The position numbers and the translations under genes are program-made. DNA of 64,000 nt from Chthoniobacter flavus. Its GTDB lineage: Bacteria; Verrucomicrobiota; Verrucomicrobiia; Chthoniobacterales; JACTMZ01. Under the pieces are notes generated by a model. It was not told where the DNA came from, searched no databases, and was given only the letters and a program-made list of their open reading frames with translations. This document shows, piece by piece, positions 3,999 through 39,606 of the stretch. Position 1 is the stretch's first letter; every line of letters begins with the position of its first letter. Location of the stretch: the NCBI GenBank assembly GCA_945878135.1, contig CAMDUL010000004.1, positions 48,044 through 112,043 on the forward strand, in the 5' to 3' direction.

Positions 3999-4327
3999 TT
4001 GTTGTGGTGTTTTTTGATTTCATCAACGGCCGCACGCAGTCGCTTTTTCTGGTCCGGCGCGAGGTCGGCAATGTCGCCTTTGGTGTAAGCTTGGAAGAGG
4101 TAGATGAGACCCGGCTGCAACAGCAGCAGGTAGATCACCCGCGCCCCTCCGCGCTTGCCCCGGCCTTTGGCCGACCAGCGCACTTTGCGCAGGCCACCGA
4201 GACCGGGAATGACGTCACCAGCTTCGGGCCGTGCGACGAGGAAATGCTGGAAGGCCGCATACTCGGCGTCCGTCCACAAGTCCGTGCATTGATCGGTGAA
4301 GGCTGGAGACTCAATGAAGGTCAACAT
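3995..4327 (-). CDS. RelE/HigB-2-like toxin
   Basis: FTDQCTDLWTDAEYAAFQHFLVARPEAGDVIPGLGGLRKVRWSAKGRGKRGGARVIYLL...QAYTKGDIADL is the typical HigB-2 pattern. Toxin-first operon with a 4-nt overlap. Confidence 0.8.
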   Translation of the reverse strand: MLTFIESPAFTDQCTDLWTDAEYAAFQHFLVARPEAGDVIPGLGGLRKVRWSAKGRGKRGGARVIYLLLLQPGLIYLFQAYTKGDIADLAPDQKKRLRAAVDEIKKHHNK

Positions 4328-4470
4328 GCACTATTACCATGTAATACCTTACTCGTGTGGCGCAAGGGGAAAAGTAATCCGGGCAGGGGCTGTTAGTGAG
4401 CGGGACGACCTCCCCGGCGTGCCGCGGCCGCCGGAGTGCCGGGTGGCTGGTAAAAAGTAACGGGTCGGCC

Positions 4471-4494
4471 GAAGAAGTATGCTGCGCACTTCGC
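4471..4494 (+). repeat. H-box hairpin repeat, degenerate copy
   Basis: GAAGAAGTATGCTGCGCACTTCGC followed by GGGCTGAAGAGG. Lies between the HigB-like start and the DUF2442 stop. Confidence 0.7.
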
Positions 4495-4513
4495 GGGCTG
4501 AAGAGGTCAAAAC

Positions 4514-4768
4514 TCAGGCGGCGGCGCAGGAGGCGGGATAGAGCCCGAACACGGCGTCGGCAATCCAAATGTCCTCGTCCAGTTCTTCCCAACGCAAGGC
4601 CCGGCCGCCGACGCGCAAGCTGACAGACGCCAACTGGTCGGGAGTGGCTTGGGCTAAGCGCGGGTAGAAGGCGACAGGAAAAGAATGAGTCGAGCCGTCC
4701 CGCAGTTTGAGAAAGATCTGCCTATCGTGGGCAGATGCCTCCAGTGCGATCATTTCGTGTTTAACCAT
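4514..4768 (-). CDS. DUF2442 domain protein
   Basis: MVKHEMIALEASAHDRQIFLKLRDGSTHSFPVAFYPRLAQATPDQLASVSLRVGGRALRWEELDEDIW. The ATG overlaps the TAA of the upstream DUF4160 reading frame (ATGGTTAA). Confidence 0.8.
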   Translation of the reverse strand: MVKHEMIALEASAHDRQIFLKLRDGSTHSFPVAFYPRLAQATPDQLASVSLRVGGRALRWEELDEDIWIADAVFGLYPASCAAA

Positions 4769-4993
4769 GGAACTTGCTCCAAGCGCTGAGAAAATCTTGC
4801 TTATTTTCTTCCACCAAGCCAGCGATTTTCGACAGTTCATGGTTGGCGAAGCCAAAGTTTTCGGCCAGCAGGACCGGGTCGAGCCGGAACTTCGCTTCGA
4901 GGTCATCGCAGGCGAGTGGATGTGCGGCGGTTCCCCGGGTTCACGCGAATAAAAATGGAACCGGTAGGGCCCCTTCCGAAAAAGGGTCGGCAT
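4761..4993 (-). pseudogene. DUF4160 gene with a frameshift
   Basis: MPTLFRKGPYRFHFYSREPGEPPHIH is in one frame. The expected continuation DLEAKFRLDPVLLAENFGFANHELSKIAGLVEENKQDFLSAWSKFHG-stop is in another frame. The span is 233 nt, not a multiple of 3. Confidence 0.75.
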
Positions 4994-5112
4994 TGCTGCA
5001 CGGTGGTGATCTGCTCCTGACGGGAGCAAGCAGGAAGGTATTAGGAGCTGGGGGTCACCTGGGCTGGCGGGTAGCCGCGGGCTGTGCGACGTGGCGCAGG
5101 TTCGGTGCTCTC

Positions 5113-5530: not shown

Positions 5531-6529
5531 GTGAAATTCACGGTAGTCACGCCCAGTTTCGGTCAACTCGACTGGCTGGAGCTTTGTCTCGCCAGTGTTC
5601 GGGATCAGGTCGCGCACGCGGCGACGCAGGGAGCAGGCAGCATGGAGCAGGGAGCAGAGATTCCAGAGAGGCAGAAGGAGGAGCGGACCGGTGAAGTATG
5701 CTCCGCACTTCACGGGCTGAAGGTGTCGGGTGAAAGGGGGGCGGCTAGGTTGCTAACGGTCGAGCACATTGTTTGCGATGGCGGCTCCCCGGGGATCGAG
5801 GACTTCAAGCAGCGCATGCTTGAGCGGTTTCCGGAAAGCCCGACCTACCGTCTTGAGTTTGTCATCGGTCCGGATGCAGGCATGTATGACGCAATCAACA
5901 AAGGTCTGCGCCGGGCCGACGGGGAAGTTTGCTCCTACCTCAATTGCGATGAACAACTGCTGCCGGGGTCGCTGGCGGCGGTCAGGGATTATTTTGCCAA
6001 ACATGCGGACACTGATGTGATCTTCGGCGACACGATCGTGGTTGGGCGGGAAGGTGAGCCGCTTTGCTATTGGCGTCCGTATGTGCCCTCGCTCGCCCAT
6101 CTGGCCGGTGCGACTTTGAACACCCTCTCCTGCAGCACCTTTTTCCGCCGCAGAGTGGTCGAGGCCGGCCACCTCTTCGAGCCGCAATGGAAAGCGGTGG
6201 GGGACTTGCGCTGGATCCGCGGGCTCTTGGAAAAGCGCCGTCCCATGGCATGCCTGCCGCGGCCGCTGGGGGCTTTCACCTTTCTCGGCGACAATCTCGG
6301 GGCGGGGGCAAAGGCGCGCGAGGAATTCGAGGCGTCACGCGAGTCCTCCTCCGGTCCCGGGCGCTGGTTCCGCCGCGGTTGGCATGGGGTCCGCAAGCTC
6401 TTCTCCGGGGCCTATGTCCGCCGCAAAGTGACCTACGACCTTTTTGCCTTGTCTGATCCGTCGAGGCGGCGACGCTTCACTTGCGACAGCCTCGGCTGGA
6501 CCTGGCCCGGCCTGACGAAATCCCCATGA
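5531..6529 (+). CDS. glycosyltransferase family 2 (carries an in-frame repeat insertion)
   Basis: GTG start. MKFTVVTPSFGQLDWLELCLASVRDQ ... EHIVCDGGSPG ... DAINKGLRRADGEVCSYLNCDEQL is the GT2 pattern. The stop overlaps the next ATG (ATGA). Confidence 0.8.
   Translation: MKFTVVTPSFGQLDWLELCLASVRDQVAHAATQGAGSMEQGAEIPERQKEERTGEVCSALHGLKVSGERGAARLLTVEHIVCDGGSPGIEDFKQRMLERFPESPTYRLEFVIGPDAGMYDAINKGLRRADGEVCSYLNCDEQLLPGSLAAVRDYFAKHADTDVIFGDTIVVGREGEPLCYWRPYVPSLAHLAGATLNTLSCSTFFRRRVVEAGHLFEPQWKAVGDLRWIRGLLEKRRPMACLPRPLGAFTFLGDNLGAGAKAREEFEASRESSSGPGRWFRRGWHGVRKLFSGAYVRRKVTYDLFALSDPSRRRRFTCDSLGWTWPGLTKSP
5615..5750 (+). repeat. H-box mosaic segment inside the GT2 coding sequence (approximate limits)
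   Basis: H-box core at 5691-5713 (GTGAAGTATGCTCCGCACTTCAC, 22/23 to consensus) followed by GGGCTGAAGG. Translated in frame as TGEVCSALHGLKV, between the conserved VRDQ and EHIVCDGGS motifs. Confidence 0.75.
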
Positions 6530-7308
6530 TTCCCGAGCAGGATAACCAAAGCGATCCCTTCTATGTGGAGGTCCTGCGGGCGGCGCTGCGCGACGGCGCC
6601 CTGCGGGCTGAAGATCGTGTTCTCGTCGTTTGCGGCGGCGTCAAAGATGAAGCATCTTTGCGCGAAGCTGGTCTTCGGAATTTCGAGCTATCGAACATCG
6701 GTGGCGAAATGGAAGTTGATGTCGAAAATCTGTCTTATGCCGAGGGCTCCTTCGATGCCGTCATCGTGCATTCCGGATTGCACCACTGCGCGTCGCCCCA
6801 CCGCGGCTTGCTCGAGATGTATCGGGTGGCTAAGCGGTGCATCATTCTTTTCGAGCCGGCGGACAATCTGGTTACCCGGTTAGGTCAGAAGCTCGGTATC
6901 GGTCAGACCTACGAATTTGCCGCCGTGCAGTGCAACCGTCTAGAGTGCGGGGGCTGGCGCAACACCTCGGCGCCGAACTGGGTCTACCGCTTCAACGCGT
7001 CTGAAATCCGGCAGACGATCAATTGCGCGGCGCCGTTCGGTCCGCACCGCTTCCGGTTCCATTACCGCACCCGTGTTCCGTGGCGCCAATTGCGCGTGCG
7101 GCGCAACAAGCTTCCGCTCGTCATGGCGATGCTTGCCGCGCCCGTGTTGCGTGTATTTGACGCCGTCGGCCCCGTGGCCAGCAATAACATGGCGGCGGTG
7201 ATCGTGAAGCCGGATCTCACCGCAGAAAAATTTCCTTGGCTGGAGAAGTCTGGTTCACAGTGGATAGCGGACCGCGGCTGGTTCCGCGGGAAATTCGGGC
7301 CCTCTTGA
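6526..7308 (+). CDS. class I SAM-dependent methyltransferase (Methyltransf_11-like)
   Basis: DRVLVVCGGVKDEASL...NLSYAEGSFDAVIVHSGLHHCASPHRGLLEMYRVAKRCIILFEP. ATG at 6526 overlaps the GT2 stop. Confidence 0.75.
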   Translation: MIPEQDNQSDPFYVEVLRAALRDGALRAEDRVLVVCGGVKDEASLREAGLRNFELSNIGGEMEVDVENLSYAEGSFDAVIVHSGLHHCASPHRGLLEMYRVAKRCIILFEPADNLVTRLGQKLGIGQTYEFAAVQCNRLECGGWRNTSAPNWVYRFNASEIRQTINCAAPFGPHRFRFHYRTRVPWRQLRVRRNKLPLVMAMLAAPVLRVFDAVGPVASNNMAAVIVKPDLTAEKFPWLEKSGSQWIADRGWFRGKFGPS

Positions 7309-7468
7309 CTTGAAGTGCGGGTTGCAAGCGGTCCAAAGGTACGCTGTTCGTGTCGGATCGTTCCTGCTGATGCGCAACCTTTCCGTCCCGCGAAGCGATG
7401 GTGCGTTCAGGGCGAGAAACGGAAACACCGGGCGTTGAGGCCCGGTGTGGCGTGGTTGCGGCGATCTG

Positions 7469-7500
7469 ACGGTTGGAGAATATGCCAACTGTCTAACAGT
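7469..7500. repeat. P element copy P4, degenerate (5 mismatches in 32)
   Basis: ACGGTTGGAGAATATGCCAACTGTCTAACAGT, centre TGCC. Sits at the left GC transition. Confidence 0.7.
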
Positions 7501-7972
7501 GCGCTCCGTTTAGGGCGTCAGGTGGTACGCAATTGGTATTCGGGTTGAGAACGAAGCCATTAGACGGTTTCATCGACGCTCTTTTGGCGGAAGTTTTAAA
7601 GTGCCATGGAGGGTTACGGAGGTGTCTTGGTATCCGACATCATAATGCTCTGAATGTGCAAGATCCAACGTGGCTGTATTGCAGCCAGTTTTGTAAGGTG
7701 ACCACCAGACGACTTGGTTGCTCACGGCAGGCAGCTTGCAATACTGGGACCGCGTCAACATGGGTTAGAACATTAACTGCACTCCAACTGAGATGTGCCT
7801 CAGGATTCTTTCTTAGGATGACATGCAGAGGCGGAAGTCGGATTGCGCATTAGTCGTATTTTCAGCCGAATATTCTGTTGATGGTTACTTAAGCAATAGT
7901 AGCATAGAAACGCAAAACTTGCAGCTACTTGTTGCTTTGGAGATAAGTTCCATATTCATTAATTTGTCATTT

Positions 7973-8871: not shown

Positions 8872-9855
8872 TCAGGTTGCGGTTTCGTACTCGGACTGGG
8901 TTCGAAGCCAGATGATGGTTTCGTCTATGCCTTGTTGGAGGGAGAACTTGGGTTGTCCTAGGAGGGCAAAGGTTTTGTCCATGGGGGTCACGTAGTTGGT
9001 GACCATGCTACGGTAGCGGGAGGAAGTGATGTAGAACGGCCTCCCGGTCAGAGCTGTGATAAGGTCGCCGACGAGGCTGGCGGTGCGAAGGATGGGACGC
9101 GGGACTTTGCGGGCGGATTGGCCGCGGAGAGCACGGCAGAAGGCGTCGGCCCAGTGGTAGATGTCAGAGGCGGGATCGCCCACATAGAAAGTTTGGCGGT
9201 CGACTTTTTCCGCAGGCTCCTCGAGTAGGGCAACCATTTGGTCGGCCACATTACCCACATACCCGTAGCACCGCACGACCGGTTTGCCACCGGGATGCAC
9301 GTAGAGACCCTTTCGCGCAATGCGCCAGAATTCCTGCGGGTAGCGTGGATGCCAAGGACCCCAGATGTTGGTCGGCCGGACCATGACCCACTCGCAGTCA
9401 AGACCGGCCCGACGGGTTTCCTGCTCGGTGATGACCTTGCTTTTTCCGTAGACGGTGGCGGGAAAGTAGTCCTCATCGTGGGCAGGGAGGCGTCCGGGCC
9501 CGCAAACAAATTGCGACGAGCACATGAGCAGACGCCGGACCGATGGGGTGGCTTGGACGGCGGCGAGGAAATTGCGCGTGCCCTGCGTATTGGCGCGAAA
9601 TCCCGTCTCGGCGGATGTCTTCTCGTCCATTTCGGTCCGCGCGGCGAGATGCATGACTTGGTCCGGGCCGAAAGCCGTCATGGTTTCCCGTAGCAAACCG
9701 GCGTCGAGAATATCCACCTCCCTCCAGAACGGCCGGTGTGCCGCCTCGTGCGGGGCTTGGTTGGAGACGTTCATGACCTCGTGGCCTTTGGTAAGCAACC
9801 GACTGACTACATGAGTCCCGATGAAGCCGGAACCACCAGTAATAAGAATTTTCAT
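8872..9855 (-). CDS. NAD-dependent epimerase/dehydratase (extended SDR)
   Basis: MKILITGGSGFIGTHVVSRLL is a Rossmann motif; YGKSK matches the catalytic YxxxK. Confidence 0.85.
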   Translation of the reverse strand: MKILITGGSGFIGTHVVSRLLTKGHEVMNVSNQAPHEAAHRPFWREVDILDAGLLRETMTAFGPDQVMHLAARTEMDEKTSAETGFRANTQGTRNFLAAVQATPSVRRLLMCSSQFVCGPGRLPAHDEDYFPATVYGKSKVITEQETRRAGLDCEWVMVRPTNIWGPWHPRYPQEFWRIARKGLYVHPGGKPVVRCYGYVGNVADQMVALLEEPAEKVDRQTFYVGDPASDIYHWADAFCRALRGQSARKVPRPILRTASLVGDLITALTGRPFYITSSRYRSMVTNYVTPMDKTFALLGQPKFSLQQGIDETIIWLRTQSEYETAT

Positions 9856-23699: not shown

Positions 23700-23783
23700 C
23701 CGGCAGTTGCGTCGGGTGATAGGGATGACGGTGAATCTGTAGCCGCGGACGATGGGTTTGAGGAGAAGTTCGACTGAAACGCG
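23700..23783 (-). pseudogene. internal fragment of a GT2 gene, truncated at the low-GC island boundary
   Basis: VELLLKPIVRGYRFTVIPITRRN against intact VELPLKAIVRGYSFTVIPITWRN (24.3 kb). Similarity ends where GC content drops. Confidence 0.75.
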
Positions 23784-23805
23784 GAAACGAGGAAATACTT
23801 AAGAT

Positions 23806-24193
23806 GCCCTAAAGAAGTATGCTGCGCGCTTAACAGAGTGAAGGGTCAAGTTACGGTCTTTTTGTAGTCACCTCGCGAAAAATATTTTTCGAGCCAGACA
23901 AACGGCTCAGCTGCGGTGACGAGTGGCCTGGTGAAGTAGGCTTTGCACTTCACGGGCCAAGTGAAAGTGAAAGGGATGCGCGCCACGCGCGCAGTAACAA
24001 GTGGCTAGTGGCTGGTGGCGGGTAGCTGGTTACTGAACCGGAACGAAGTGGAGATAGCCGCAGGCAAACTTGAGGCCTGAGGGAGCCTTTGCTATCGCAA
24101 TTTGCGATGTCAAAGATTCGAGCTCTTGTTTGCTAAGCTGGAAACGAAAGTCCTTGCGAAAGTGGGCTTGGTCGCACTTCACGGGCTCAAGCG
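23806..24193 (+). repeat. H-box mosaic block M1
   Basis: H-box copies at 23813-23834 (degenerate), 23931-23953 and 24162-24182 (half). Also GTGAAAGTGAAAGGG, CTGAACCGGAACGAAGTGGAGATAG (24033-24057) and the small palindrome ATCGCAATTTGCGAT. Confidence 0.85.
23846..23899 (-). pseudogene. remnant of a GT2 3' terminus
   Basis: VWLEKYFSRGDYKKTVT-stop against intact VWLEKYFSRGDYRKTAA-stop (24194-24247). Confidence 0.75.
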
Positions 24194-25147
24194 TCAAGCC
24201 GCGGTCTTTCGGTAGTCGCCGCGAGAGAAATACTTCTCCAACCATACATAGAGGACGATGAAGAGGTAGCGGCTGCCCATTTCTTTGATTTTGAGTTTGG
24301 CTAGGCCGGTGCGGCGGTTGCGCCAGGTGATGGGGATGACGGTGAAACTGTAGCCGCGGACGATGGCCTTCAGGGGGAGTTCGACCGTGACGTTGAAATG
24401 CGGGGCAAGAATTGGCCGGATGCCGTCGATGACTTCTTTGCGGTAGGCTTTGAAGGCGTTGGTCGTGTCGTTCAAGCCGTGACGGAAAAGGAAGCGCACG
24501 AAGGCGTTGGCCAGGCGGTTCATGAAGAGCTTGATCGGCGGGTAGTCGATGGTGCCGCCTCCCTTCATGAAGCGGCTGCCGAAGACGCAGTCGTAGCCTT
24601 CGTTGAGCTTTTTCCAATACCGGACGACATCGCGGCAGTCGTCGCTCTCGTCGGCCATGAAGATGACCGCTGCGTCGCCGTTCATGGCGTCGAGGCCGAG
24701 GGTGATGGCGCGGCCGAAGCCCTTGGGGCCGGGATTTTGCACGCAGTGTAGAATCCTGTGACGAGGGTCGAGTGACGAGTGAGGAGTGGGTGTAGCTGGG
24801 GGCGGCCCGGTGAAGTATGCTTCGCACTGCACGGGCTGAAGGGGGGACTGGAGACCTGAGTCGGAAGCCTGAGTGACTGCGCCTTTGGCGCGGGTATCGC
24901 CAACCTCCGAATTTCTATCTTCCATCTTCCGCGGCACGCCGTTCAGCCGCGCTGCTTCTTCTTGGAGGATTGGCCAGGTGCGGTCTTTGGAGCCGTCGTC
25001 GACGACGATGATTTCGTGCGGGACGCCGCGGAGGTCCAACTCGAGATGCAGGTGCTCGACGGTGGACGCGATGCAGCCTTCCTCGTCACGCGCGGGGATG
25101 ATGACGGAGAGGAGCCGGAGAGGGGAATTTTTAACAGAAGGTAACAA
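24194..25147 (-). CDS. glycosyltransferase family 2, DPM1/GtrB-like (carries an in-frame repeat insertion)
   Basis: LLSVIIPARDEEGCIASTVEHL...HEIIVVDDGSKDRTW...NPGPKGFGRAITLGLDAMNGDAAVIFMADESDD...FGSRFMKGG...KLKIKEMGSRYLFIVLYVWLEKYFSRGDY. Confidence 0.85.
   Translation of the reverse strand: MLPSVKNSPLRLLSVIIPARDEEGCIASTVEHLHLELDLRGVPHEIIVVDDGSKDRTWPILQEEAARLNGVPRKMEDRNSEVGDTRAKGAVTQASDSGLQSPLQPVQCEAYFTGPPPATPTPHSSLDPRHRILHCVQNPGPKGFGRAITLGLDAMNGDAAVIFMADESDDCRDVVRYWKKLNEGYDCVFGSRFMKGGGTIDYPPIKLFMNRLANAFVRFLFRHGLNDTTNAFKAYRKEVIDGIRPILAPHFNVTVELPLKAIVRGYSFTVIPITWRNRRTGLAKLKIKEMGSRYLFIVLYVWLEKYFSRGDYRKTAA
24750..24925 (+). repeat. H-box mosaic segment inside the GT2 coding sequence (approximate limits, about 57 codons)
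   Basis: GTGACGAGGGTCGAGTGACGAGTGAGGAGTGGG, plus an H-box at 24810-24832 (22/23) followed by GGGCTGAAGGGG. Read on the minus strand in frame as ...LQPVQCEAYFTGPPPATPTPHSSLDPRHR... Confidence 0.8.
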
Positions 25148-25302
25148 AGTGAACGAAGGGGAGGGGCGCCCCGGTGAAGTATGCTGCGCGCTTCACAGGC
25201 CAAGTGAAGAGGGAAAGTGAAAGTGAAAGGGAGCCAGAGACCGGAGATCGGAGGTCGGCCCGGTGAAGTATGCTGCGCACTTCACGGGGTGAAGGAGAAA
25301 GG
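25148..25302 (+). repeat. H-box mosaic block M3
   Basis: Two H-boxes (25174-25196, 25263-25285) separated by AAGTGAAGAGGGAAAGTGAAAGTGAAAGGG. Confidence 0.9.
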
Positions 25303-25614
25303 TTAGGGGTCGTAGCGGGCTTCTTCCTCGGCTACGACCGGCGTGTTGGCGTGAGCTTGACGGGCCCATGCCGGCGCGGATCCGGTGAGCAATTGGTATA
25401 GGTATTCGGGCGAGAGATCGAAGCCGCATCTCCAGGCCAAGGTGGGCCATTCGTCGAGATAGAAGTCCGCGAATTTTCCGGGATCTCGAAGGTCCGCCGC
25501 CGCCTCGTATTTGCCGATGGTGTCGCGCAAATCAATGACACCGGAAAGGCCATCGCTGAACTCGATCGAGATCAGGTGGTCCTCAAGGTGTCGGGCGTTC
25601 TTAACTGATATCAT
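25303..25614 (-). CDS. DUF2442 domain protein
   Basis: MISVKNARHLEDHLISIEFSDGLSGVIDLRDTIGKYEAAADLRDPGKFADFYLDEWPTLAWRCGFDLSPEYLY. Confidence 0.8.
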   Translation of the reverse strand: MISVKNARHLEDHLISIEFSDGLSGVIDLRDTIGKYEAAADLRDPGKFADFYLDEWPTLAWRCGFDLSPEYLYQLLTGSAPAWARQAHANTPVVAEEEARYDP

Positions 25615-25616
25615 GC

Positions 25617-25956
25617 TCAAGTTAATGGTTCGATTTTGTGGAACTCTTTGCTGTCCCACATTTGCAGAAGTTGCCTCCCTCGCCCCGCTCGTGTCGCCCT
25701 ACGGGCTGCCTTCGGCAGGGTTGATGCTCGTCCTGCGAGCGAGCACCCCTGCGGGGCACAGACTTGCGCTGTGTCTATCTCCAACTGCACGGCAGTTTCC
25801 GGTTCCCCGCGCGGCCATCCGCGCCGGTGGTCAGCACTTGCTGCTGATCGAAACGACTGCGCGCCATTCGTTGTATCGCACGTGGAAATGGGGCGGGTTG
25901 TGCTCGTCGAAATACATGCTAATGACGACACCGAGGAATCGACTTATTTCGGGCAT
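25617..25956 (-). pseudogene. disrupted DUF4160 gene
   Basis: MPEISRFLGVVISMYFDEHNPPHFHVRYNEWRAVVSISSKC then an in-frame TGA. The family-typical C-terminus ...LLQMWDSKEFHKIEPLT-stop is in another frame, after a second GEPETAVQLEIDTAQV segment. Confidence 0.65.
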
Positions 25957-26002
25957 GTCATTAGGTAACCGGGACGCTTTGGCAATTGAAAGATGCAATC
26001 TA

Positions 26003-26056
26003 TCATTGCGTGAGGGACTTTTGGTAATTCCCGCGGGAGAAGTATTTTTCAGCCGG
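26003..26056 (-). pseudogene. remnant of a GT2 3' terminus
   Basis: EKYFSRGNYQKSLTQ-stop. It shares the upstream sequence CTCGTCACCGCRGCTGAGCCG with the remnant at 23846-23920. Confidence 0.7.
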
Positions 26057-26286
26057 ACAAGCGGCTCAGCCGCGGTGACGAGTGGCGCGTGAGGGGGGCG
26101 GCCCGATGAAGTATGCTTCGCACTTCACGGGCCAAGTGAAGAGGGAAAGTGAAAAGTGGAGGGTGGAGAGCTGAACCGGAACGAAGTGGAGATAGCAGAT
26201 GGCCCCAAGGCAAATGGGTCGCTCCTGCGACCAAATTTTGAAAAACTGAAAAGCTGAAATACGGCGAACTGCGCGCTTGGCGCGGT
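26057..26286 (+). repeat. H-box mosaic block M4
   Basis: GCGGTGACGAGTGGCG, H-box 26106-26128, GTGAAGAGGGAAAGTGAAAAGTGGAGGGTGGAGAG, CTGAACCGGAACGAAGTGGAGATAG (26171-26195), CTGAAAAGCTGAAA. Confidence 0.9.
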
Positions 26287-26288
26287 TC
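26266..26288 (-). terminator. putative intrinsic terminator downstream of hicA
   Basis: Minus-strand RNA GAACCGCGC-CAA-GCGCGCAGUUC (9-bp stem, one mismatch) followed by GCCGUAUUUCAGCUUUUCAGUUUUUCAAAAUUU. Confidence 0.4.
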
Positions 26289-26493
26289 AAATGTCGTCCT
26301 CGACCAAACCGGCTATTTTCATCTGGGAGCGCAGCAAGCCGATCTTCAGTGGTTGGTTGCCGTGGATGGGGATGACGATGCGCTCTGGTCGGCCGGTTAG
26401 CGTGAAGACGTGATGGCTGCCTTTGATGCGGACAAGAATCCAACCCTTCTTCTGCAAGGCCCGGGCCAGCTCTTTACCGGAAACTTGTTTCAA
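26287..26493 (-). CDS. hicA: HicA-family mRNA interferase toxin
   Basis: MKQVSGKELARALQKKGWILVRIKGSHHVFTLTGRPERIVIPIHGNQPLKIGLLRSQMKIAGL. Confidence 0.9.
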   Translation of the reverse strand: MKQVSGKELARALQKKGWILVRIKGSHHVFTLTGRPERIVIPIHGNQPLKIGLLRSQMKIAGLVEDDI

Positions 26494-26693
26494 AGAGCGA
26501 GTTCCAGCACGCGGCTTTCCTTTTCGGCGACCGCCGAAGCCTCACCGGCTTCGAACCAAAGCTCGACGGCCTCCAGAAGATTGGTGCGGATCTCCTCCTC
26601 ACTTTCCCCCTGCGTGACGCAGCCGGGAAGTGCCGGGACTTCAGCCCAAAAACCACCTTCTTCTGCCTCGTGAACTATGGCTTTGATCGTCAT
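26490..26693 (-). CDS. hicB: HicB-like antitoxin (UPF0150 fold, no DNA-binding extension)
   Basis: TIKAIVHEAEEGGFWAEVPALPGCVTQGESEEEIRTNLLEAVELW. 4-nt overlap with hicA. Confidence 0.85.
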   Translation of the reverse strand: MTIKAIVHEAEEGGFWAEVPALPGCVTQGESEEEIRTNLLEAVELWFEAGEASAVAEKESRVLELAL

Positions 26694-26887
26694 GACTGCA
26701 GCATATCGGCGGTGGGTTGAGGAGGCAAGCGGAGCGGCGCGCTACGCGCGCAGTAGCGGATGGCTGGGCCTGGTGAAGTAGGTTACGCACTTCACGGGGT
26801 GAAGGAGAGTGAAAGTGAGAGGGGGGAGTTACGGAAAGGCTGAAAGACTGAAACGCTGAACGGAGTGAAGATGGGTCGCGAATTCGC
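26694..26887 (+). repeat. H-box mosaic block M5
   Basis: H-box 26773-26795, GTGAAGGAGAGTGAAAGTGAGAGG, GGCTGAAAGACTGAAACGCTGAACGGAGTGAAG. Confidence 0.9.
26700..26728 (-). promoter_or_regulatory. putative sigma70-like promoter of hicBA
   Basis: Minus strand reads TTGCCT - 17 nt - TATGCT, with the -10 hexamer ending 6 nt before the ATG (a leaderless-type layout). Confidence 0.3.
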
Positions 26888-27304
26888 TCACGCCTTTCGC
26901 TTCATGGTGGGTTCGATGACGGTCAGGTTGGTGAAGTAGTCGCGGTAGTATCCCCTGTCTCTGGCCAACAGGCGGCTGGCCTGACAAGACGCGTGTGCTC
27001 CGATGAGAAAATCCGGAAGGACGCGCTTCGATGCACGATTTCGGCGGAGGTAGTCGCGATACATTTCACCGGCCAAGATGGAAGATTCCCGCGAGGACGG
27101 CACAAAGAGGATGTTCCAATCGGCCAAGAAGGAACTTAGATTGTCCTTGGTCAGCGCGGGGGTGATCTCGGCCAGCACGCATTCCCCGATGACCAGCGGT
27201 CCGTTGCCGAGCGCCCGTTTCAAGGCTTCTTCCGAGGCTTGACCCCACTGTGGGTCGTCAGTCAACACGTCAAGAATGACACTGGAATCCAAGGCGGTCT
27301 TCAT
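26888..27304 (-). CDS. vapC: PIN-domain toxin VapC
   Basis: MKTALDSSVILDVLTDDPQWG...GECVLAEI...DFLIGAHASCQASRLLARDRG. ATG at 27304 overlaps the antitoxin stop. Confidence 0.85.
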   Translation of the reverse strand: MKTALDSSVILDVLTDDPQWGQASEEALKRALGNGPLVIGECVLAEITPALTKDNLSSFLADWNILFVPSSRESSILAGEMYRDYLRRNRASKRVLPDFLIGAHASCQASRLLARDRGYYRDYFTNLTVIEPTMKRKA

Positions 27305-27525
27305 CCTCCGCGCACGAGGCCCAAATATTCGTCGACCGAGCGACCAACCGGAAGAATCCCTTTTCCGCGCCAAGCCGAAATCGGATTTTCCTGGAGTATT
27401 TTTGTCACAATGATGCGGCCCTCGTCCTCGGCAAACGCGAGAACGGAACCGGCCTCGAGCCCCAGGTCATCGCGAATGGGTTTGGGGATGGTCACTTGGC
27501 CCTTTTCCGAGACAATAGCATTCAT
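27301..27525 (-). CDS. vapB: AbrB/MazE/SpoVT-family antitoxin (VapB)
   Basis: MNAIVSEKGQVTIPKPIRDDLGLEAGSVLAFAEDEGRIIV. Confidence 0.85.
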   Translation of the reverse strand: MNAIVSEKGQVTIPKPIRDDLGLEAGSVLAFAEDEGRIIVTKILQENPISAWRGKGILPVGRSVDEYLGLVRGG

Positions 27526-27531
27526 ACTTTT

Positions 27532-27559
27532 ACGGTAGGCATTCTTACAACTGTGTCAA
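27532..27559 (-). promoter_or_regulatory. putative sigma70-like promoter of vapBC
   Basis: Minus strand reads TTGACA - 16 nt - TACCGT, with the -10 hexamer ending 6 nt before the ATG. Confidence 0.3.
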
Positions 27560-27896
27560 TCAAGAGGGCGCGGCGGACGCAGACAGCCCGCGGGGGACGA
27601 GCGATGAGTGATGAGTGAAGAGTGAAAAGTGGAGGGTGGAGAGCTGAACCGGAACGAAGTGGAGATAGGTCGCTTTAGCGATCAACTGATACCGGAACGA
27701 AGTGGAGATAGCCCGAAGGCAAAAGCTGAAAGGCTGAAAGGCTGAGAGGGGACGAGTGGCGTGTGACGAGTGACGAGTAGCCCAGTGAAGTATGCTTCGC
27801 ACTTCACGGGGTGAAGGGAAAGTGAAAGGGGAGGCGCGCTTCACAGGCTAAAGAACCCTCCAGCGCTTCGCGCTTACGGGTTGGAGAGAGTGAATC
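27560..27896 (+). repeat. H-box mosaic block M6
   Basis: GATGAGTGATGAGTGAAGAGTGAAAAGTGGAGGGTGGAGAG, CTGAACCGGAACGAAGTGGAGATAG twice (27644-27668, 27692-27711), GCTGAAAGGCTGAAAGGCTGAG, GACGAGTGGCGTGTGACGAGTGACGAG, H-box 27785-27807, half copy 27831-27850. Confidence 0.9.
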
Positions 27897-28286
27897 TCAG
27901 CCGAGGGACTTGACGTGGGGGTAGTCGAGGATGAGGCGGTCGGTTGTGATGATGGTGAGATTTTCCAGGCGCGCCGTGGCGATGATGATGCGATCGGCGG
28001 GATCACGATGGACGGGCTCGGGCAGGGAGTAAGCTTCTTCGATGATCTCGAGGGAGATCGGGACGATGTTCCATCCGTTCCGTTCCGTTTGGGTGCGGAA
28101 CCATTTCTTCCAATGTTGCGGAAGACGGATCTTTTGCCGCTCCTGCAAGCAGGCCAGTTCGGCCGCGACGATCGGGCTGCAGTGGACGATCTGCTCGGGC
28201 GAAGCGACCAACTCGAGGGCCGCGGTGCTGAGTCGCTCCGGTGCGGCGGCAAGATAGAGCAACGCGCAGGTATCGAGCAGGATCAT
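27897..28286 (-). CDS. vapC: PIN-domain toxin VapC
   Basis: MILLDTCALLYLAAAPERLS...DPADRIIIATARLENLTIITTDRLI. Confidence 0.85.
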   Translation of the reverse strand: MILLDTCALLYLAAAPERLSTAALELVASPEQIVHCSPIVAAELACLQERQKIRLPQHWKKWFRTQTERNGWNIVPISLEIIEEAYSLPEPVHRDPADRIIIATARLENLTIITTDRLILDYPHVKSLG

Positions 28287-28534
28287 CGGGCGCCTTCAGG
28301 CCCGGCCAAGATTCCCCAGTCCTCCGGTGGAATGGCGGGTCCTTCCAAGTCGGCGTGGATTTGGACGGTTGGATCGAATCCCGTGGTCGAGCGGTTGGGG
28401 CGTGAGGCGAGGGGTGTGATTTTCGCCACCGGCTTGTTGCGTGAGCAGACCAAGATGGAATCGCCAGACTGCACTTTGCCGAGGAACTCGCTCAGGCTGT
28501 TTTTCAGGACAGCGACGTTCACTGTGTGAGTCAT
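28283..28534 (-). CDS. Phd/YefM-type antitoxin
   Basis: MTHTVNVAVLKNSLSEFLGKVQSGDSILVCSRNKPVAKITP. 4-nt overlap with vapC. Confidence 0.75.
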   Translation of the reverse strand: MTHTVNVAVLKNSLSEFLGKVQSGDSILVCSRNKPVAKITPLASRPNRSTTGFDPTVQIHADLEGPAIPPEDWGILAGPEGAR

Positions 28535-28800
28535 GGCTTGAAATGTGGCTATAAAGTTGGCCAGGTCAAGCGTGAAGAGCGGCCTGGTGATCTATACTTT
28601 GCACTTCATGGGCTGAAGGGGACGAGTGGCGAGTGAAATGTGAAATGTGAAAAGTGGAGGGAGGGAAAAAAGAGAAGAAAAGCTGAAAGACTGAAAGGCT
28701 GAAAGACGGACGGGGTGCGTGTGGCGAGCGGCTCGTTGAAGTATGCTTCGCACTTCACAGGCTGAAGGGGGTCCGCTTCGGGGTTTCAGTTTCCTTTGTG
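28535..28800 (+). repeat. H-box mosaic block M7
   Basis: H-boxes at 28587-28609 (degenerate) and 28736-28758. Also GTGAAATGTGAAATGTGAAAAGTGGAGGG and GCTGAAAGACTGAAAGGCTGAAAG. Confidence 0.85.
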
Positions 28801-29005
28801 CTCTCCGTGCCTCCGTGAGAGCCAGTCGGTTTGCTGCGGGACACTGCGGAGCAGGCTGCCGCCTTTGGTCGGCGGGTTGGCGAACCAAGGCGGAGGCTCC
28901 GGTTGGAGCCAGTGATTCAGTTTTCGGTGGTTCAGTGTTCAGTAGCCCTGAGGCACTTGAAACGAACGGCAGAAGAAAGGTGTTTCACGGGAATGGAAAA
29001 ATTGC

Positions 29006-29617
29006 TCAGCCGCCACCGAGGATTTTTCTGGCGAGGGGTAAAATGGTGCGGGCACTGCGGTGCCATTTGGCCACGCGGTCGAGGCGGAAGCGCATGGAAG
29101 AGAGGGCGGAAGGCTGGGACCTCAAAGATGAGTTGAGGGATGAGGGATGAGAGTTGAGGGAGGCGCGCAGGGCTTTGATGCGGGATTCGGTGGATTCGAG
29201 GCGGGGGATGACGCGTTCTTTGAGGAAACCGGAGATGAGGAGCTTCATTTCGAGCTTGGCGGTGTAAAGCGCCTGACGAGAGCCGTCGGTGCGCTCTTTG
29301 ACCACCGCGCCGAAGGCCTCGAGTTGCCGCAAGCCCTGGCTGGCCGATCCCTGGCTGATGCCGAGGCGCCGGGCGATGTCCTCCATGCTCAAAGGAGTCT
29401 CGTGGGCGAAGAGAAGTCCGTAAATTTGTCCGTAAGACTTGGGGTTGCCGAACAATTCGGCGAGATCCGTGAAGATGTCGACCAGGCCGGATTCGTAATC
29501 GGCCGGGAGCAGGGAGCCGGGAGCGGGGAGCGAGCCCTGCGGCCCGGAGATCCTGCGGGTCGGAGAGAGGCGGGCGACGCGTGACGGGTCACGGGCCAAC
29601 TTGGGGGCCGGGGGCAT
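29006..29617 (-). CDS. GbsR/MarR-family transcriptional regulator
   Basis: FGNPKSYGQIYGLLFAHETPLSMEDIARRLGISQGSASQGLRQLEAFGAVVKE. ATG at 29617. The N-terminal about 40 codons overlap a repeat also found at 33165-33214. Confidence 0.75.
   Translation of the reverse strand: MPPAPKLARDPSRVARLSPTRRISGPQGSLPAPGSLLPADYESGLVDIFTDLAELFGNPKSYGQIYGLLFAHETPLSMEDIARRLGISQGSASQGLRQLEAFGAVVKERTDGSRQALYTAKLEMKLLISGFLKERVIPRLESTESRIKALRASLNSHPSSLNSSLRSQPSALSSMRFRLDRVAKWHRSARTILPLARKILGGG
29520..29569. repeat. 50-nt repeat (copy a) inside the 5' part of the GbsR-family ORF
   Basis: GAGCGGGGAGCGAGCCCTGCGGCCCGGAGATCCTGCGGGTCGGAGAGAGG. 41/50 identical to 33165-33214 by hand count. Confidence 0.75.
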
Positions 29618-29888
29618 GGGGAAAGTGAAGAGCGAAGAGTGAGGAGTGAGGAGTGGAGAGTGAAGATCCACGATAGAGGGGTGGGAGGGAATGTCAATTC
29701 AAAATGAAATTGGTAGCGGAGGCCCCGGTGAAGTATGCTGCGCACTTCACGGGGAGAAGAACGGGGGTTACTGAAACGCTGAAAGGCTGAAGGGCTGAAA
29801 CGCTGAATGGCCGAGGGACCAGTGGCACGGTGAAGTTGGCTTCGGCCTCGGGAAGGGGGCCCTTAAAGGGGGAGCGGGGCGGCGTTGG
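29618..29888 (+). repeat. H-box mosaic block M8
   Basis: GTGAAGAGCGAAGAGTGAGGAGTGAGGAGTGGAGAGTGAAG, H-box 29728-29750, CTGAAACGCTGAAAGGCTGAAGGGCTGAAACGCTGAA, degenerate H-box 29830-29852. An AT-rich TTGACA-16-TATCGT (minus strand, about 29676-29703) is a possible GbsR promoter. Confidence 0.85.
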
Positions 29889-31475
29889 TCAGGGGGTGGT
29901 GCCTGGCAGGGGGTCGCCTTCGCGGGTGAAGATGGTGAAGGCTTGCAACTGCAGGGCGGGGACGAAGCGGTTTTCGGCGGCGTAGCGGGCAACGGAACCT
30001 TGCGGGTCGTAGATGTCGGGTTTGCTGATGACGATGAGCCGCGGGGGAAATTTGAAGCGGATGGAATCCCACGACGGGGCCTGCATGGCCCAGGCGCGGC
30101 CGGGGACTTTCTCGAGGGCCACGGGGGTGAGGTAGATGTAGGCGGCGGCTGGATCGGCCGCCCACCAGACTTCGCGGTTTTCCCGCAAGGCGGCGGCGGC
30201 GATGGCGGAGGCCTCGCGGTAGTTGTCTTTGGCATGCGCCGGTTGCCAGCGGAAGTTCAAGCTCGAGCCGAGCCAGAGCAAGGGGAGCAGCGCGGCGACG
30301 GCGCGCCAGAACTTGGATTTGCCTTCGAGTGCGCGCTGCATCACGGCGGCGATGGCGAGGAGCAGGGCGGGCAGTGCCGGGATCAAATGGCGCGGCAGGA
30401 GGCGGTGGTCGAAGAGGAAGAGGGCGCCGAAAACGGCCAACAGCGGCAGCCCGAGCGCCAAGATCCAGGCGACCACTGCTTCCCGCCGCCACGGGCGCGT
30501 GGCGATCTGGCGTCCGCCGTAATAGGCGAGCAGGCCGAAGGTGAGGGCCAAGGGCAAAAGGACCGGAAGGCTGCGCAGGATGGAGCGGACCGGTTCGCCG
30601 CGCATCTCGACTTTCCCCGGACCGAAACCGGTGAAGCCGAGCAATTCGTAAGCGACGAAGGGAAGGCTGAGCAAGGAGGCCCCGGCGCGATGGTAGCCGC
30701 GGCCCGCGTCACCCCAGGTTATGACATAGTAGGCGGCAAAAACCGCGAGGAGGGCCACGGCGGGAAGGATGACGCGCCATGGCGTGCTTCGCGGAGTGCC
30801 CGTCTCCGGGCGTCCGCGCAGCAGAAAAAGAAGGGCCAGCACATAAGCTCCGGCCCAGGCCACGCCGAGGAGACTCGAGGCGAAGAGCACGACGGTCGCG
30901 GCGGCGAGGGCGGCGAGGAGAGGCGACGAGTGACGGGTGACGAGGAGTCGAGAGTCGGGGGCCGAGGGTTGAGAGGTCGGGGCGGACGAGAAGCGGGCGA
31001 CGGCGGCCGCGAGCCAACAGGCGGCGGCGTATTGCATGACATAGGGCCTTGTTTCGTCGAGATACATCCAGAGGATCGGGCTGACCGCGGCGAGGAGGCA
31101 GGCGAGGAGGGCGAGGCGGGGTTTGTGGCGCAGGAGAACGAGGAAAGCGAGTTGGCCGAGGACGAACCATGGGATGTTGGAGGCGCGCATGGCCCATTCG
31201 CCGCCGCCGAAGACTTTGTGCCAGACGTAGAGATAGCCCTGGTAGACCGGCATCTGCAGGGTGGAACCGCTGACCGCCTGCATGTATTTCCAGGCCTCGG
31301 CCGGGGTCGAGGACATGGCGACGATGAGCGAGAGGGCTTCATCGATCCAGTAGCTCTGCGTGCTGATGGCGAAACCGGCGACGATGGCCGAGGTGGCCAG
31401 GACGGCGAGGATGACGGCGCGGGAGAGGGTGAGGTCGCCGGCGGGGTGCTCCGCCGGGGCATGCGGGTCGTCCAT
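29889..31475 (-). CDS. glycosyltransferase family 39/83-like (ArnT/PMT-type) membrane protein
   Basis: SYWIDEALSLIVAMSS...MPVYQGYLYVWHKVFGGGEWAMRASNIPWFVLGQLAFLVLL. Many TM helices. ATG at 31475. Confidence 0.6.
   Translation of the reverse strand: MDDPHAPAEHPAGDLTLSRAVILAVLATSAIVAGFAISTQSYWIDEALSLIVAMSSTPAEAWKYMQAVSGSTLQMPVYQGYLYVWHKVFGGGEWAMRASNIPWFVLGQLAFLVLLRHKPRLALLACLLAAVSPILWMYLDETRPYVMQYAAACWLAAAVARFSSAPTSQPSAPDSRLLVTRHSSPLLAALAAATVVLFASSLLGVAWAGAYVLALLFLLRGRPETGTPRSTPWRVILPAVALLAVFAAYYVITWGDAGRGYHRAGASLLSLPFVAYELLGFTGFGPGKVEMRGEPVRSILRSLPVLLPLALTFGLLAYYGGRQIATRPWRREAVVAWILALGLPLLAVFGALFLFDHRLLPRHLIPALPALLLAIAAVMQRALEGKSKFWRAVAALLPLLWLGSSLNFRWQPAHAKDNYREASAIAAAALRENREVWWAADPAAAYIYLTPVALEKVPGRAWAMQAPSWDSIRFKFPPRLIVISKPDIYDPQGSVARYAAENRFVPALQLQAFTIFTREGDPLPGTTP

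Positions 31476-36963: not shown

Positions 36964-39606
<2,643 letters not shown>

Follow-up and report, generated by a model that had tools for sequence, protein, structure and literature searches.

H-box, a structured hairpin repeat family in accessory gene patches of Chthoniobacter flavus

Which kind of element is the small hairpin repeat that recurs between the genes of a toxin-antitoxin array in Chthoniobacter flavus, and how has it come to lie there? The repeat, the H-box, was described in an earlier note on a stretch of 64,000 nt (assembly GCA_945878135.1, contig CAMDUL010000004.1, positions 48,044-112,043), which is called the window here. We find that the H-box is a real, structured and widespread family of small hairpin repeats for which no catalogue match was found, and that its stem is kept by compensatory change. 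It works like the repetitive extragenic palindromes (REPs) and the bacterial interspersed mosaic elements (BIMEs), but it cannot be filed as a member of either.

A hairpin repeat with a covarying stem

We searched the window with the pattern GTGAAGT-N9-ACTTCAC, allowing up to three mismatches. It gave 15 matches compared to 1.49 expected from 100 shuffles, none of which reached 15, and the repeat family proposed in the earlier note is therefore real. All 15 matches are on the + strand, 12 of them within 23.9-29.8 kb; two more are at 4472 and 5691, and the last, at 38824, falls inside gyrB and was rejected as a chance match. A covariance model, R1, trained on copies found outside the window and used with a significance threshold of E<0.05, detected 12 copies and one fragment, again all on the + strand. 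These copies start at 4466, 5684, 23924, 24803, 25167, 25256, 26099, 26766, 27778, 28580, 28729 and 29721. The nine good copies and the two left-patch copies (4471, 5691) already noticed were all recovered, in the single orientation that had been claimed for them. The 64 kb thus hold 12-14 H-boxes, confined to two accessory patches at 4.4-5.8 kb and 23.8-29.9 kb, with none in the core, and R1 found none in the 10 kb past either end of the window (20 kb in all).

The core of 23 nt, with a 7-bp stem and a 9-nt loop, proved to be real, but the hairpin extends beyond it to about 33 nt, and the whole unit measures 33-41 nt. It reads N-CCC, a bulged G, GTGRART, an unpaired AT, GC, a 3-nt loop TNN, GC, AYTYCAC and GGG-N'. 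This corresponds to a structure of 13 pairs, composed of an outer N-CCC/GGG-N' stem, the 7-bp stem and a GC/GC pair that closes the 3-nt loop. A short tail of consensus Y-R-A-R-G (e.g. CTGAAG, CCAAGG or GCAAGC) follows on the 3' side, while upstream there is only a weak GC[GTA] consensus. Folded as DNA, the hairpin has an energy of -10.5 kcal/mol and a z-score of -3 to -4. Every window copy begins its stem with GTGA, and GTGG at this place is found only in a GTGGAAT/GTGGAGT subfamily elsewhere.

Outside the window, public genomes were scanned with the exact core, and metagenomes with the foot and the loop fixed and the four inner stem positions free; the genome and metagenome loci used in the comparisons carry L-numbers (L004, L037 etc.). 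The metagenome scan yielded 79 loci with an H-box. In nearly all of them the free stem positions are complementary, three loci resembling chance matches to coding DNA. The inner-stem combinations are AAGT/ACTT in 44 loci, AAAT/ATTT in 14 and GAAT/ATTC in 12, with AAAA/TTTT (2), GAGT/ACTC (1) and AAAC/GTTT (1) being rarer.

Covariation was assessed on 62 distinct sequences, in an alignment not fitted to the model, and on 125 distinct copies found by R1, whose alignment is biased toward pairing because it was fitted to R1. A standard pair occupies 97.6% of the pair positions in the smaller set and 96.8% in the larger one, compared to 23-51% and 27-52%, respectively, when the partners were slid. 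Four pairs are changed on both sides among the 62 sequences and 7 of the 13 among the 125 copies, so that the stem covariation on which the earlier note had made the family depend is present. The observed values were reached by 0 of 500 shuffles for three of five measures with the 62 sequences, and for all five with the 125 copies. The outermost pair, N:N', is G:C in 73, C:G in 25, A:U in 5 and U:A in 3 of the 125 copies; being complementary with all four base pairs, it fits a folded strand rather than a dimer-bound duplex. Variation is slight in the GTG/CAC foot, in the A-U pair at stem position 5, in the bulged G and in the loop letters. Since foot and loop letters were set in the metagenome search pattern and stem position 5 was left free, the invariance of foot and loop across the family is partly by design.

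The exact core was found in public genomes at seven loci, all of them in Verrucomicrobiota bins (Chthoniobacterales, Chthoniobacter, Puniceicoccaceae and Verrucomicrobiae). An additional bin carries the label Pirellulaceae, but its flanks are shared with a Chthoniobacterales bin of the same study; the sequence around the hairpin is identical in the two (L005 and L007), and one of the contigs is probably mis-binned. An extended core, GGCCCGGTGAAGTATGCTGCGCACTTCACGGGC, is identical in the genome loci and is flanked by unrelated short tandem words, the same 31 nt thus sitting among unrelated words in different genera and different classes of Verrucomicrobiota. Overall, R1 gave 169 H-box matches in 83 loci; no copy was seen in viral contigs or plasmids. 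The further copies that the earlier note called for therefore exist, and no match to a catalogued family was found: there is no match in Rfam, a literature search with the core in both orientations returned chance primer matches only, and the core strings are absent from the supplements of two REP catalogues.

Nested, tandem and in-frame copies

Whole H-box units lie inside the loops of others at seven loci (L040, L050, L049, L017, L059, L086 and L082), as in L050, which reads TGCCCGGTGAAGT-A-[CCCCGGTGGAATATGCTTCGCATTCCACGGGGCGAGG]-ACTTCACGGGCC, and the deepest nesting reaches three levels (L017). Inner and outer unit are often of different stem subfamilies, and several subfamilies stand side by side in one locus (L059, L013). 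Tandem arrays with a period of 37-50 nt are found at L045, L057, L078, L043 and L006. The nesting and the tandem period point to a unit of about 37 nt, i.e. the hairpin with its tail.

H-boxes are also found inside genes, in frame. The gene of a glycosyltransferase of family GT2, dolichol-phosphate-mannosyltransferase-like (24194-25147, - strand; a split match in Pfam), stays open through about 190 nt of words and H-box, which insert about 65 amino acids (about 24745-24935), the hairpin itself being translated as PVQCEAYFTGP. The gene is otherwise highly conserved, its orthologs being 85-88% identical outside the insert, but the insert itself is hypervariable, with from 0 to more than 100 residues between ...EEAARLN and ILHCVQNPGPHGFG; at the DNA level, L011 and L015 have other words without a hairpin at this place and L080 has the hairpin. 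A second GT2 gene (5531-6529, + strand; Pfam) holds the H-box at 5691 in frame, after GCAGGGA heptamers (5626-5657), and its L042 ortholog keeps the hairpin with different words upstream. The two genes, one on each strand, thus carry the H-box at unrelated positions. One long open reading frame (ORF) of L045 contains six tandem units (7327-7575) with a period of 37-38 nt, two units making 25 codons, and its L063 ortholog has GGGGTTA heptamers at the same place (about 4130-4224). In the frames used the hairpin is free of stops and reads VKYAxHFTG on one strand and PVKCxAYFTG on the other. In-frame REPs inside genes have been documented, and they are most abundant in the verrucomicrobium Opitutus terrae (PMC3733652).

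Two further observations concern repeats and coding sequence. A 92-nt fragment at 23701-23792, in the gap to the left of the first GT2 gene, is 82% identical to a segment inside that gene 600 nt away (24312-24403), and on this similarity it is probably the relic of a duplicated or displaced GT2 copy. Tandem repeats of a heptamer or of 22 nt (TGAGGGA, GGGAGCG and GAGGAGTCGAGAGTCGGGGGCC) are present inside the ORFs of a MarR-like protein and of a 584-aa core protein, at 29134-29161, 29502-29532 and 30920-30982, which shows that words also invade coding sequence away from hairpins.

From left to right, the copies of the window, all on the + strand, are as follows. The copy at 4466-4505 (R1 30 bits; a 3-mismatch match) is degenerate and lies just downstream of a DUF2442 gene (4514-5029, - strand), and that of the second GT2 gene spans 5684-5724 (59 bits). 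Of the degenerate copy claimed at 23813, R1 finds a fragment of the loop region only (23815-23831; 16.9 bits, E 0.11). The H-box at 23924-23964, found by both the pattern and R1, has the loop AGGCTTTGC and is followed, in order, by GTGAAAG words, a C-box, GTGGCT words and an E-box, the two modules described below. A 3' half (24162-24191; repeat family D6 and sequence) adjoins the stop codon of the first GT2 gene; the copy inside this gene, antisense to it and in frame (24803-24843; 61.5 bits), is flanked by GTGACGA words (24758-24788), and another precedes its start (25167-25207; R1). The following copies lie downstream of the stop of a second DUF2442 gene (25256-25296; R1) and at 26099-26139 (R1 and repeat search), where GTGAAG words, CTGAA and an E-box come next. 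The copy at 26766-26806, with the loop AGGTTACGC, stands between hicB and a PIN gene, and that at 27778-27818, detected like the former by pattern and R1, precedes a degenerate second copy (27822-27844; a 3-mismatch match). A weak copy upstream of the Phd/PIN operon (28580-28620; 19 bits, E 0.035) is degenerate, and R1 also detected those at 28729-28769 and at 29721-29761, the latter between the MarR-like gene and the 584-aa core gene, with AGTGAAG words (29624-29666) and CTGAAACG words (29771-29811) on its two sides. Among the half copies proposed, those at 24162, 27822 and 28580 stand in the forms just given, and one at 29830 received no support from R1. A good sigma-70-like promoter match (TTGACA-16-TATCGT, 29697-29670, - strand) lies just downstream of the H-box at 29728 and upstream of the MarR-like gene.

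One or two H-boxes thus occupy almost every gap between the operons of the array. The claim that they fill every intergenic gap holds nearly, with two qualifications: no H-box lies in the gap that separates the DUF2442 and DUF4160 genes (25660-25830), which contains an 85-nt insertion of another element, and the copies at 24810 and 5691 are inside GT2 genes.

Cassette junctions and companion modules

The array itself consists of cassette genes that are all on the - strand (25303-29671; Pfam). They encode DUF2442 (25303-25659) and DUF4160 (25831-25998) proteins, HicA (26287-26493) with HicB (26490-26693), a first PIN protein (26888-27373) with AbrB/MazE (27301-27525), a second PIN protein (27897-28286) with Phd (28283-28534), and a MarR-like protein with a helix-turn-helix domain (29006-29671). 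Polysaccharide-synthesis genes lie on the left of the array and core genes (bactofilins, Lpd, GyrB, RNase E/G and PBP2) on its right.

Related metagenome contigs have the flanking GT2 and 584-aa genes in common, with differing contents between them, so that the comparison of syntenic loci shows a cassette content that differs between strains, with block edges at H-boxes. In L011, similarity to GT2 gives way within about 120 nt to similarity to the MarR-like gene, and nothing matches 25.15-28.97 kb; this is a third strain (L011 6134-6253), for which the 3.8-kb cassette array gives no match. L037 and L015 have some of these cassettes in other contexts. The PIN/AbrB cassette (26841-27816, - strand) is 96.5% identical to L037 1986-2962, compared to 80-87% for the neighbouring core, which suggests a recent exchange. 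On the left the cassette ends within GCTGAAAG words, which are accompanied by a degenerate E-box at about 26857-26890, and on the right at the end of an H-box tail.

Similarity blocks are bounded at 5' edges of H-boxes at 25252 and 28730 and at 3' edges at 25199 and 27816, other block edges being within GCTGAAAG words (26841 and 28696). Thus, the block common to L037 and L015 ends at the 3' edge (25199) of the H-box 25167-25207, the block common to L077, L020 and L029 starts at the 5' edge (25252) of the H-box 25256-25296, and the block common to L037 that holds the MarR-like gene starts at the 5' edge (28730) of the H-box 28729-28769. Judged from these alignments, the H-boxes appear to mark the places where accessory cassettes were swapped between related strains, and the recombination may have taken place at the hairpin itself. 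Elsewhere the neighbours of hairpins, among the 25 of 79 Pfam families listed, are PIN (5), DUF4143/AAA_14 ATPases (4), DUF5615 (3), HEPN (2), MNT (2), four-helix proteins of the 23S intervening-sequence type (23S-IVS; 2), DUF2442 (2) and AbiEii (1).

The gaps of the array are mosaics of at least three small hairpin modules, the H-box, the E-box and the C-box, and of tandem words of 7-8 nt, in a recurring order. The E-box is a 43-nt unit with a head CCGGAACGAAGTGGAGATAG, a hairpin GTCGCTTTAGCGATC of 6 bp of its own and then AACTGATA. The word CTGAACCGGAACGAAGTGGAGATAG, listed earlier as a companion of the H-box, is the head of the E-box and separate from the H-box; this separate mobile element, the in-frame copies inside genes and the cassette-exchange junctions had been missed. 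E-box heads or units are found on the + strand at 24037-24059 (a head, CCGGAACGAAGTGGAGATAG, preceded by CTGAA; repeat family D12), at 26175-26197 (repeat search) and at 27648-27713, where one full 43-nt unit is followed by a second head (repeat families D9 and D12). The 85-nt insertion of the DUF2442/DUF4160 gap (25720-25804, - strand) has an E-box-like head in reverse orientation and is absent at the same site in L020, L077 and L029. A 70-nt E-box copy interrupts the hicA ortholog of L056, L064 and L079 (L056 about 9770-9840) exactly 3' of CTGAA, and CTGAA is also present at the corresponding empty site in hicA of the window (26341-26345). At one orthologous site L011 has two tandem units (6960-7045) and L079 one. 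CTGAA or CTGATA precedes 5 of 6 E-box copies, and no duplication is evident at the one empty site seen. The E-box is a second small mobile element, with clean presence and absence between strains. Its targeting is that of single-strand transposition of the type of the insertion sequences (IS) IS200/IS605, and this is the best hint to the kind of enzyme at work in these genomes.

The C-box has the sequence GCGCGC-YAC-GCGCGC-AGTARC, is found also in L015 and L037, is followed by GGCTGGT-type words and is always in the same orientation as the H-box. The window has one on the + strand at 23978-23999 (GCGCGC-CAC-GCGCGC-AGTAAC; repeat family D18) and another just upstream of the H-box at 26766 (26737-26758, + strand). 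Tandem Repeats Finder and a repeat search confirmed the companion words and gave units of 6-8 nt, namely AAGTGA, GTGACGA, AAAGGCTG, GACGAGT, AGTGAAG and CTGAAACG, concentrated in 23.5-31.5 kb and 5.4-5.66 kb. The words of 7-8 nt resemble the heptameric repeats over-represented in Nostoc and Xanthomonas (PMC4692102). The excess of such repeats in some bacteria, where they are intergenic with a rapid turnover between strains, has been attributed to polymerase slippage (PMC4692102). In L057 (280-800), hairpins are flanked by GGGATTG/AGGAATT heptamers, which resemble the G-rich heptamers of GGGAATC type of Xanthomonas and Nostoc.

Mode of action and possible mobility of the H-box

Does the H-box act as RNA or as DNA? 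Its independence from gene direction, claimed for the window, extends to the family: among 150 non-redundant ORFs adjoining hairpins at all loci, 83 have the same direction as the hairpin and 67 the opposite one. The hairpins of L049 are oriented as its vapBC operon, and those of the window are opposite to the cassette genes. The mismatches are nearly symmetrical, as 32 would be a G-U wobble on the + strand and 26 on the - strand, and a strand-specific RNA was rejected on these two counts. No T run follows the hairpin in either direction; an intrinsic terminator was rejected, since no H-box is found among the terminator-like sites, the number of which equals the shuffle expectation. No Rfam family reached its gathering score anywhere in the window, and in 23.5-30.2 kb a threshold of E<=1 brought up nothing relevant. 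From the sequence, the H-box appears to act as DNA and not as a strand-specific RNA. A CRISPR array was likewise rejected, the spacings between copies being 89 to 1679 nt with genes in between.

Neighbouring H-boxes are nearly always co-oriented, in the window as in L004, L017, L018, L037, L053, L057 and others, and mixed orientations are seen in four loci only (L009, L013/L040, L049 and L070). When the loci were turned so that the hairpin is on the + strand, the GC skew of the ORFs on both strands was positive in 25 of 34 loci, and about 16 of 25 groups fit after allowing for duplicates and synteny. This is suggestive only, and it would fit the placement of one H-box strand on the lagging-strand template, as is known for IS200/IS605 elements (PMC6006769).

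How does the H-box compare with known systems? REP and REPIN elements, which are described with the Y1 HUH transposases called REP-associated tyrosine transposases (RAYT, TnpA-REP) (PMC6006769, PMC3116915, PMC3733652), are alike in being short (about 35 nt), imperfect, bulged palindromes with a stem that covaries between subfamilies, in having many copies mostly between genes and some in frame, and in that the mobilising gene is absent near most copies. The GTGG...CCAC variants of the GTGGAAT subfamily recall the 'double-foot' REPs documented with RAYT subclass 2.4 (PMC6006769). The H-box differs in having neither the unpaired GT[AG]G tag nor inverted doublets and in being confined to accessory patches. 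The REPs GTAG-17 to GTAG-20 of Opitutus terrae encode other peptides (GTGVPPV, VGPALAAG and HGRHARAT, compared to VKYAxHFTG; PMC3733652), and this, with the absence of the core strings from the Opitutus terrae supplement, makes the H-box another family. With the BIMEs of enterobacteria the H-box has in common a palindromic unit, a small vocabulary of motifs in recurring orders and an intergenic location; BIME units, however, alternate in orientation, which the H-boxes of the window never do, and the words are here tandem repeats of 7-8 nt. The REP/BIME architecture claimed earlier therefore stands for the modular mosaic and its recurring order, and not for the 5' tag, the inverted doublets or a RAYT, none of which was found.

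The attC sites of integrons and the CALIN (clusters of attC sites lacking an integrase) are also co-oriented around toxin-antitoxin-rich cassettes of strain-variable content, and fold with unpaired bases and a variable terminal loop. They measure 55-140 nt against 33-41 nt for the H-box, whose foot is CCCGGTG...CACGGG and which is also found inside genes and in tandem, with no fixed gene orientation. Reading of the sequence showed that the hairpin has neither of the attC core sites, R'' (RYYYAAC) and R' (GTTRRRY), and Pfam detected no recombinase domain, such as that of an integron integrase, among the window ORFs scanned. Sites of attC and Xer/dif type were rejected on the missing core sites and on the outermost pair, complementary with all four pairs. 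IS200/IS605 elements and palindrome-associated transposable elements (PATEs) are alike in hairpin recognition, in the E-box insertion 3' of CTGAA and in the single orientation of neighbours, which targeting of the lagging strand would lead one to expect; they differ in that no TnpA or TnpB was found and that the units of 37-43 nt are far below IS or PATE size. The Rickettsia palindromic elements also persist in coding genes by keeping the frame, but most of those described are longer, belong to another lineage and are not tied to cassette arrays. Nearest in behaviour may be the small dispersed repeats of cyanobacteria that Elhai et al. reportedly described in 2008, which are said to measure 21-27 nt, to be apparently mobile in coding and non-coding DNA with no known enzyme, and to be inserted in one another and within runs of tandem heptamers; they differ in phylum and in sequence, the H-box being a full hairpin with covariation.

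Considering these features together, we propose, with a probability of about one half, that the H-box is non-autonomous, folding as single-stranded DNA and mobilised in trans, and that it has a second role as the junction at which toxin-antitoxin cassettes recombine. It would be a miniature, REP-like hairpin repeat of about 37-41 nt acting at the DNA level, folding when the DNA is single-stranded and recognised through the invariant GTG/CAC foot, the bulged G and the loop. An enzyme whose gene lies in another part of the genome would copy it to new sites, the likeliest being a Y1 HUH single-strand transposase (RAYT/TnpA-like) working at replication forks. New copies would land beside or inside older ones and in slippage-prone runs of 7-8-nt words, giving BIME-like mosaics with the E-box and the C-box; near-identical copies of 35-40 nt would then pile up between accessory genes and serve as crossover points for cassette exchange between strains, while copies in tolerant protein loops would survive only if the frame is kept. 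The structure with its covariation, the distribution over many contexts, the nesting and tandem arrangement, the independence of gene orientation, the in-frame copies and the block boundaries are shown by the sequences; from them we infer the folding as a single strand, the identity of the enzyme, the coupling to replication and the mechanism of recombination.

Several results weigh against it. No Y1/RAYT or IS200-type transposase and no integrase was found in the 64-kb window, in the 20 kb beyond it or in the approximately 0.45 Mb of the 83 hairpin-bearing loci, with Pfam on the main ORFs, gene calls and phmmer. The phmmer search, with E. coli RayT as query and of low sensitivity, covered the window and all loci translated in six frames and had no match better than E 0.6, which for the window agrees with the lack of a RAYT or IS200-like gene noted before; Pfam on the 150 ORFs adjoining hairpins showed no transposase among the 25 of 79 families listed. 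The 5' GT[AG]G tag of REPs is absent, the 4 nt upstream being GGCG in 16, AGCT in 8 and GTGG in 3 of 124 copies, and the H-boxes are co-oriented, tandem or nested, without inverted doublets. Comparison of related loci gave no clean pair of filled and empty sites for a single unit, because the flanks are hypervariable and turn over too fast. The copy number per genome looks modest, with the exact core at 1-2 places per representative genome, although metagenome assemblies may collapse repeats. R1 finds no H-box in the 30-64 kb core or in the low-GC island of the window, as the earlier note had claimed, the gyrB match being due to chance. Moreover, the link between orientation and replication is statistically insecure, several loci being syntenic, and the constancy of foot and loop was in part built in by the search pattern.

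Could the H-box have spread without a dedicated enzyme, through slippage, template switching at a stalling hairpin and homologous recombination or gene conversion, its spread being local or by horizontal transfer of cassettes? H-boxes do sit in hypermutable tandem runs of 7-8 nt, orthologous sites have words in some cases and hairpin arrays in others, tandem arrangement and a shared local orientation are frequent, and block boundaries at H-boxes fit plain homologous recombination; phmmer found no transposase in the window and the loci, and the heptamer excess of some bacteria is ascribed to slippage (PMC4692102). We nevertheless hold this explanation to be unlikely, as the 31-nt core stands amid unrelated flanks in different Verrucomicrobiota classes and at unrelated positions in the two GT2 genes, units are nested precisely in the loops of different subfamilies, and one and the same locus holds several stem subfamilies (L059, L013). 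Slippage would also leave a conserved foot, bulge and loop beside a covarying stem unexplained. The constancy of foot, bulge and loop, the stability of the hairpin and the presence of one or two copies in almost every inter-operon gap would suit, in turn, a host site selected at each location, either a DNA site for a nucleoid or topology protein or an RNA hairpin that stabilises or delimits toxin-antitoxin transcripts. BIMEs of E. coli bind gyrase and IHF. Most REPs are reported to lie downstream of ORFs, and for many of them a role as RNA is assumed (PMC3733652). A function of this kind is distinctly unlikely, however, when orientation is independent of genes, copies lie upstream, downstream and inside genes, and the hairpin has no asymmetry of G-U against A-C, no T run and no Rfam family. 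The absence of the H-box from about 55 kb of core operons in the window and from the 20 kb beyond weighs against a general transcript or topology signal, which should be there.

An integron-like recombination site, analogous to attC in being a folded strand at which a recombinase inserts and excises toxin-antitoxin cassettes, would account for the small co-oriented cassettes (HicAB, the two PIN pairs and DUF2442/DUF4160), each bounded by co-oriented hairpins, and for the unpaired bases (the G bulge and AT) and variable terminal loop. Strains differ in which cassettes they have and in their order, the boundaries falling at the hairpin; the similarity of one cassette between strains far exceeds that of the regions around it, and typical cassette cargo (PIN, HEPN/MNT, DUF4143 ATPases, AbiEii) lies near hairpins elsewhere. 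It is the least probable explanation that we considered, given that neither the window nor the vicinity of the array has a tyrosine recombinase, that the hairpin lacks RYYYAAC/GTTRRRY and is half the minimal attC length, that single copies are also found inside genes, besides tandem and nested ones, that flanking genes have either orientation, and that some block edges are in words outside the hairpin. Finally, a bolder reading, which we consider improbable, is that the H-box is not a REP of RAYT type but a folded single-strand site belonging to a recombination or transposition system as yet undescribed, in Verrucomicrobiota and in other uncultured phyla. If this were true, the system would move 37-nt units into the loops of their own copies and insert, excise and reshuffle toxin-antitoxin and defence cassettes, as a functional analogue of the integron based on a different site and enzyme.

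The H-box family breaks the usual REP rules, with no GTAG tag, a single orientation and nesting in loops, and the discovery of its enzyme would either extend the range of single-strand DNA transposition known so far or bring to light a new system of cassette shuffling. The analysis adds a well-supported repeat family, with structure, covariation and about 170 copies at about 80 loci, to almost unstudied lineages, namely Chthoniobacterales, other Verrucomicrobiota and other uncultured bacteria. Repeats of the H-box type account for the fragmentation of assemblies and for spurious ORFs in genomes of this kind, and could serve as strain markers. They can remodel conserved enzymes in frame, as in the glycosyltransferase loop that varies from 0 to more than 100 residues, and they appear to mark the exact sites at which accessory cassettes are exchanged between strains.

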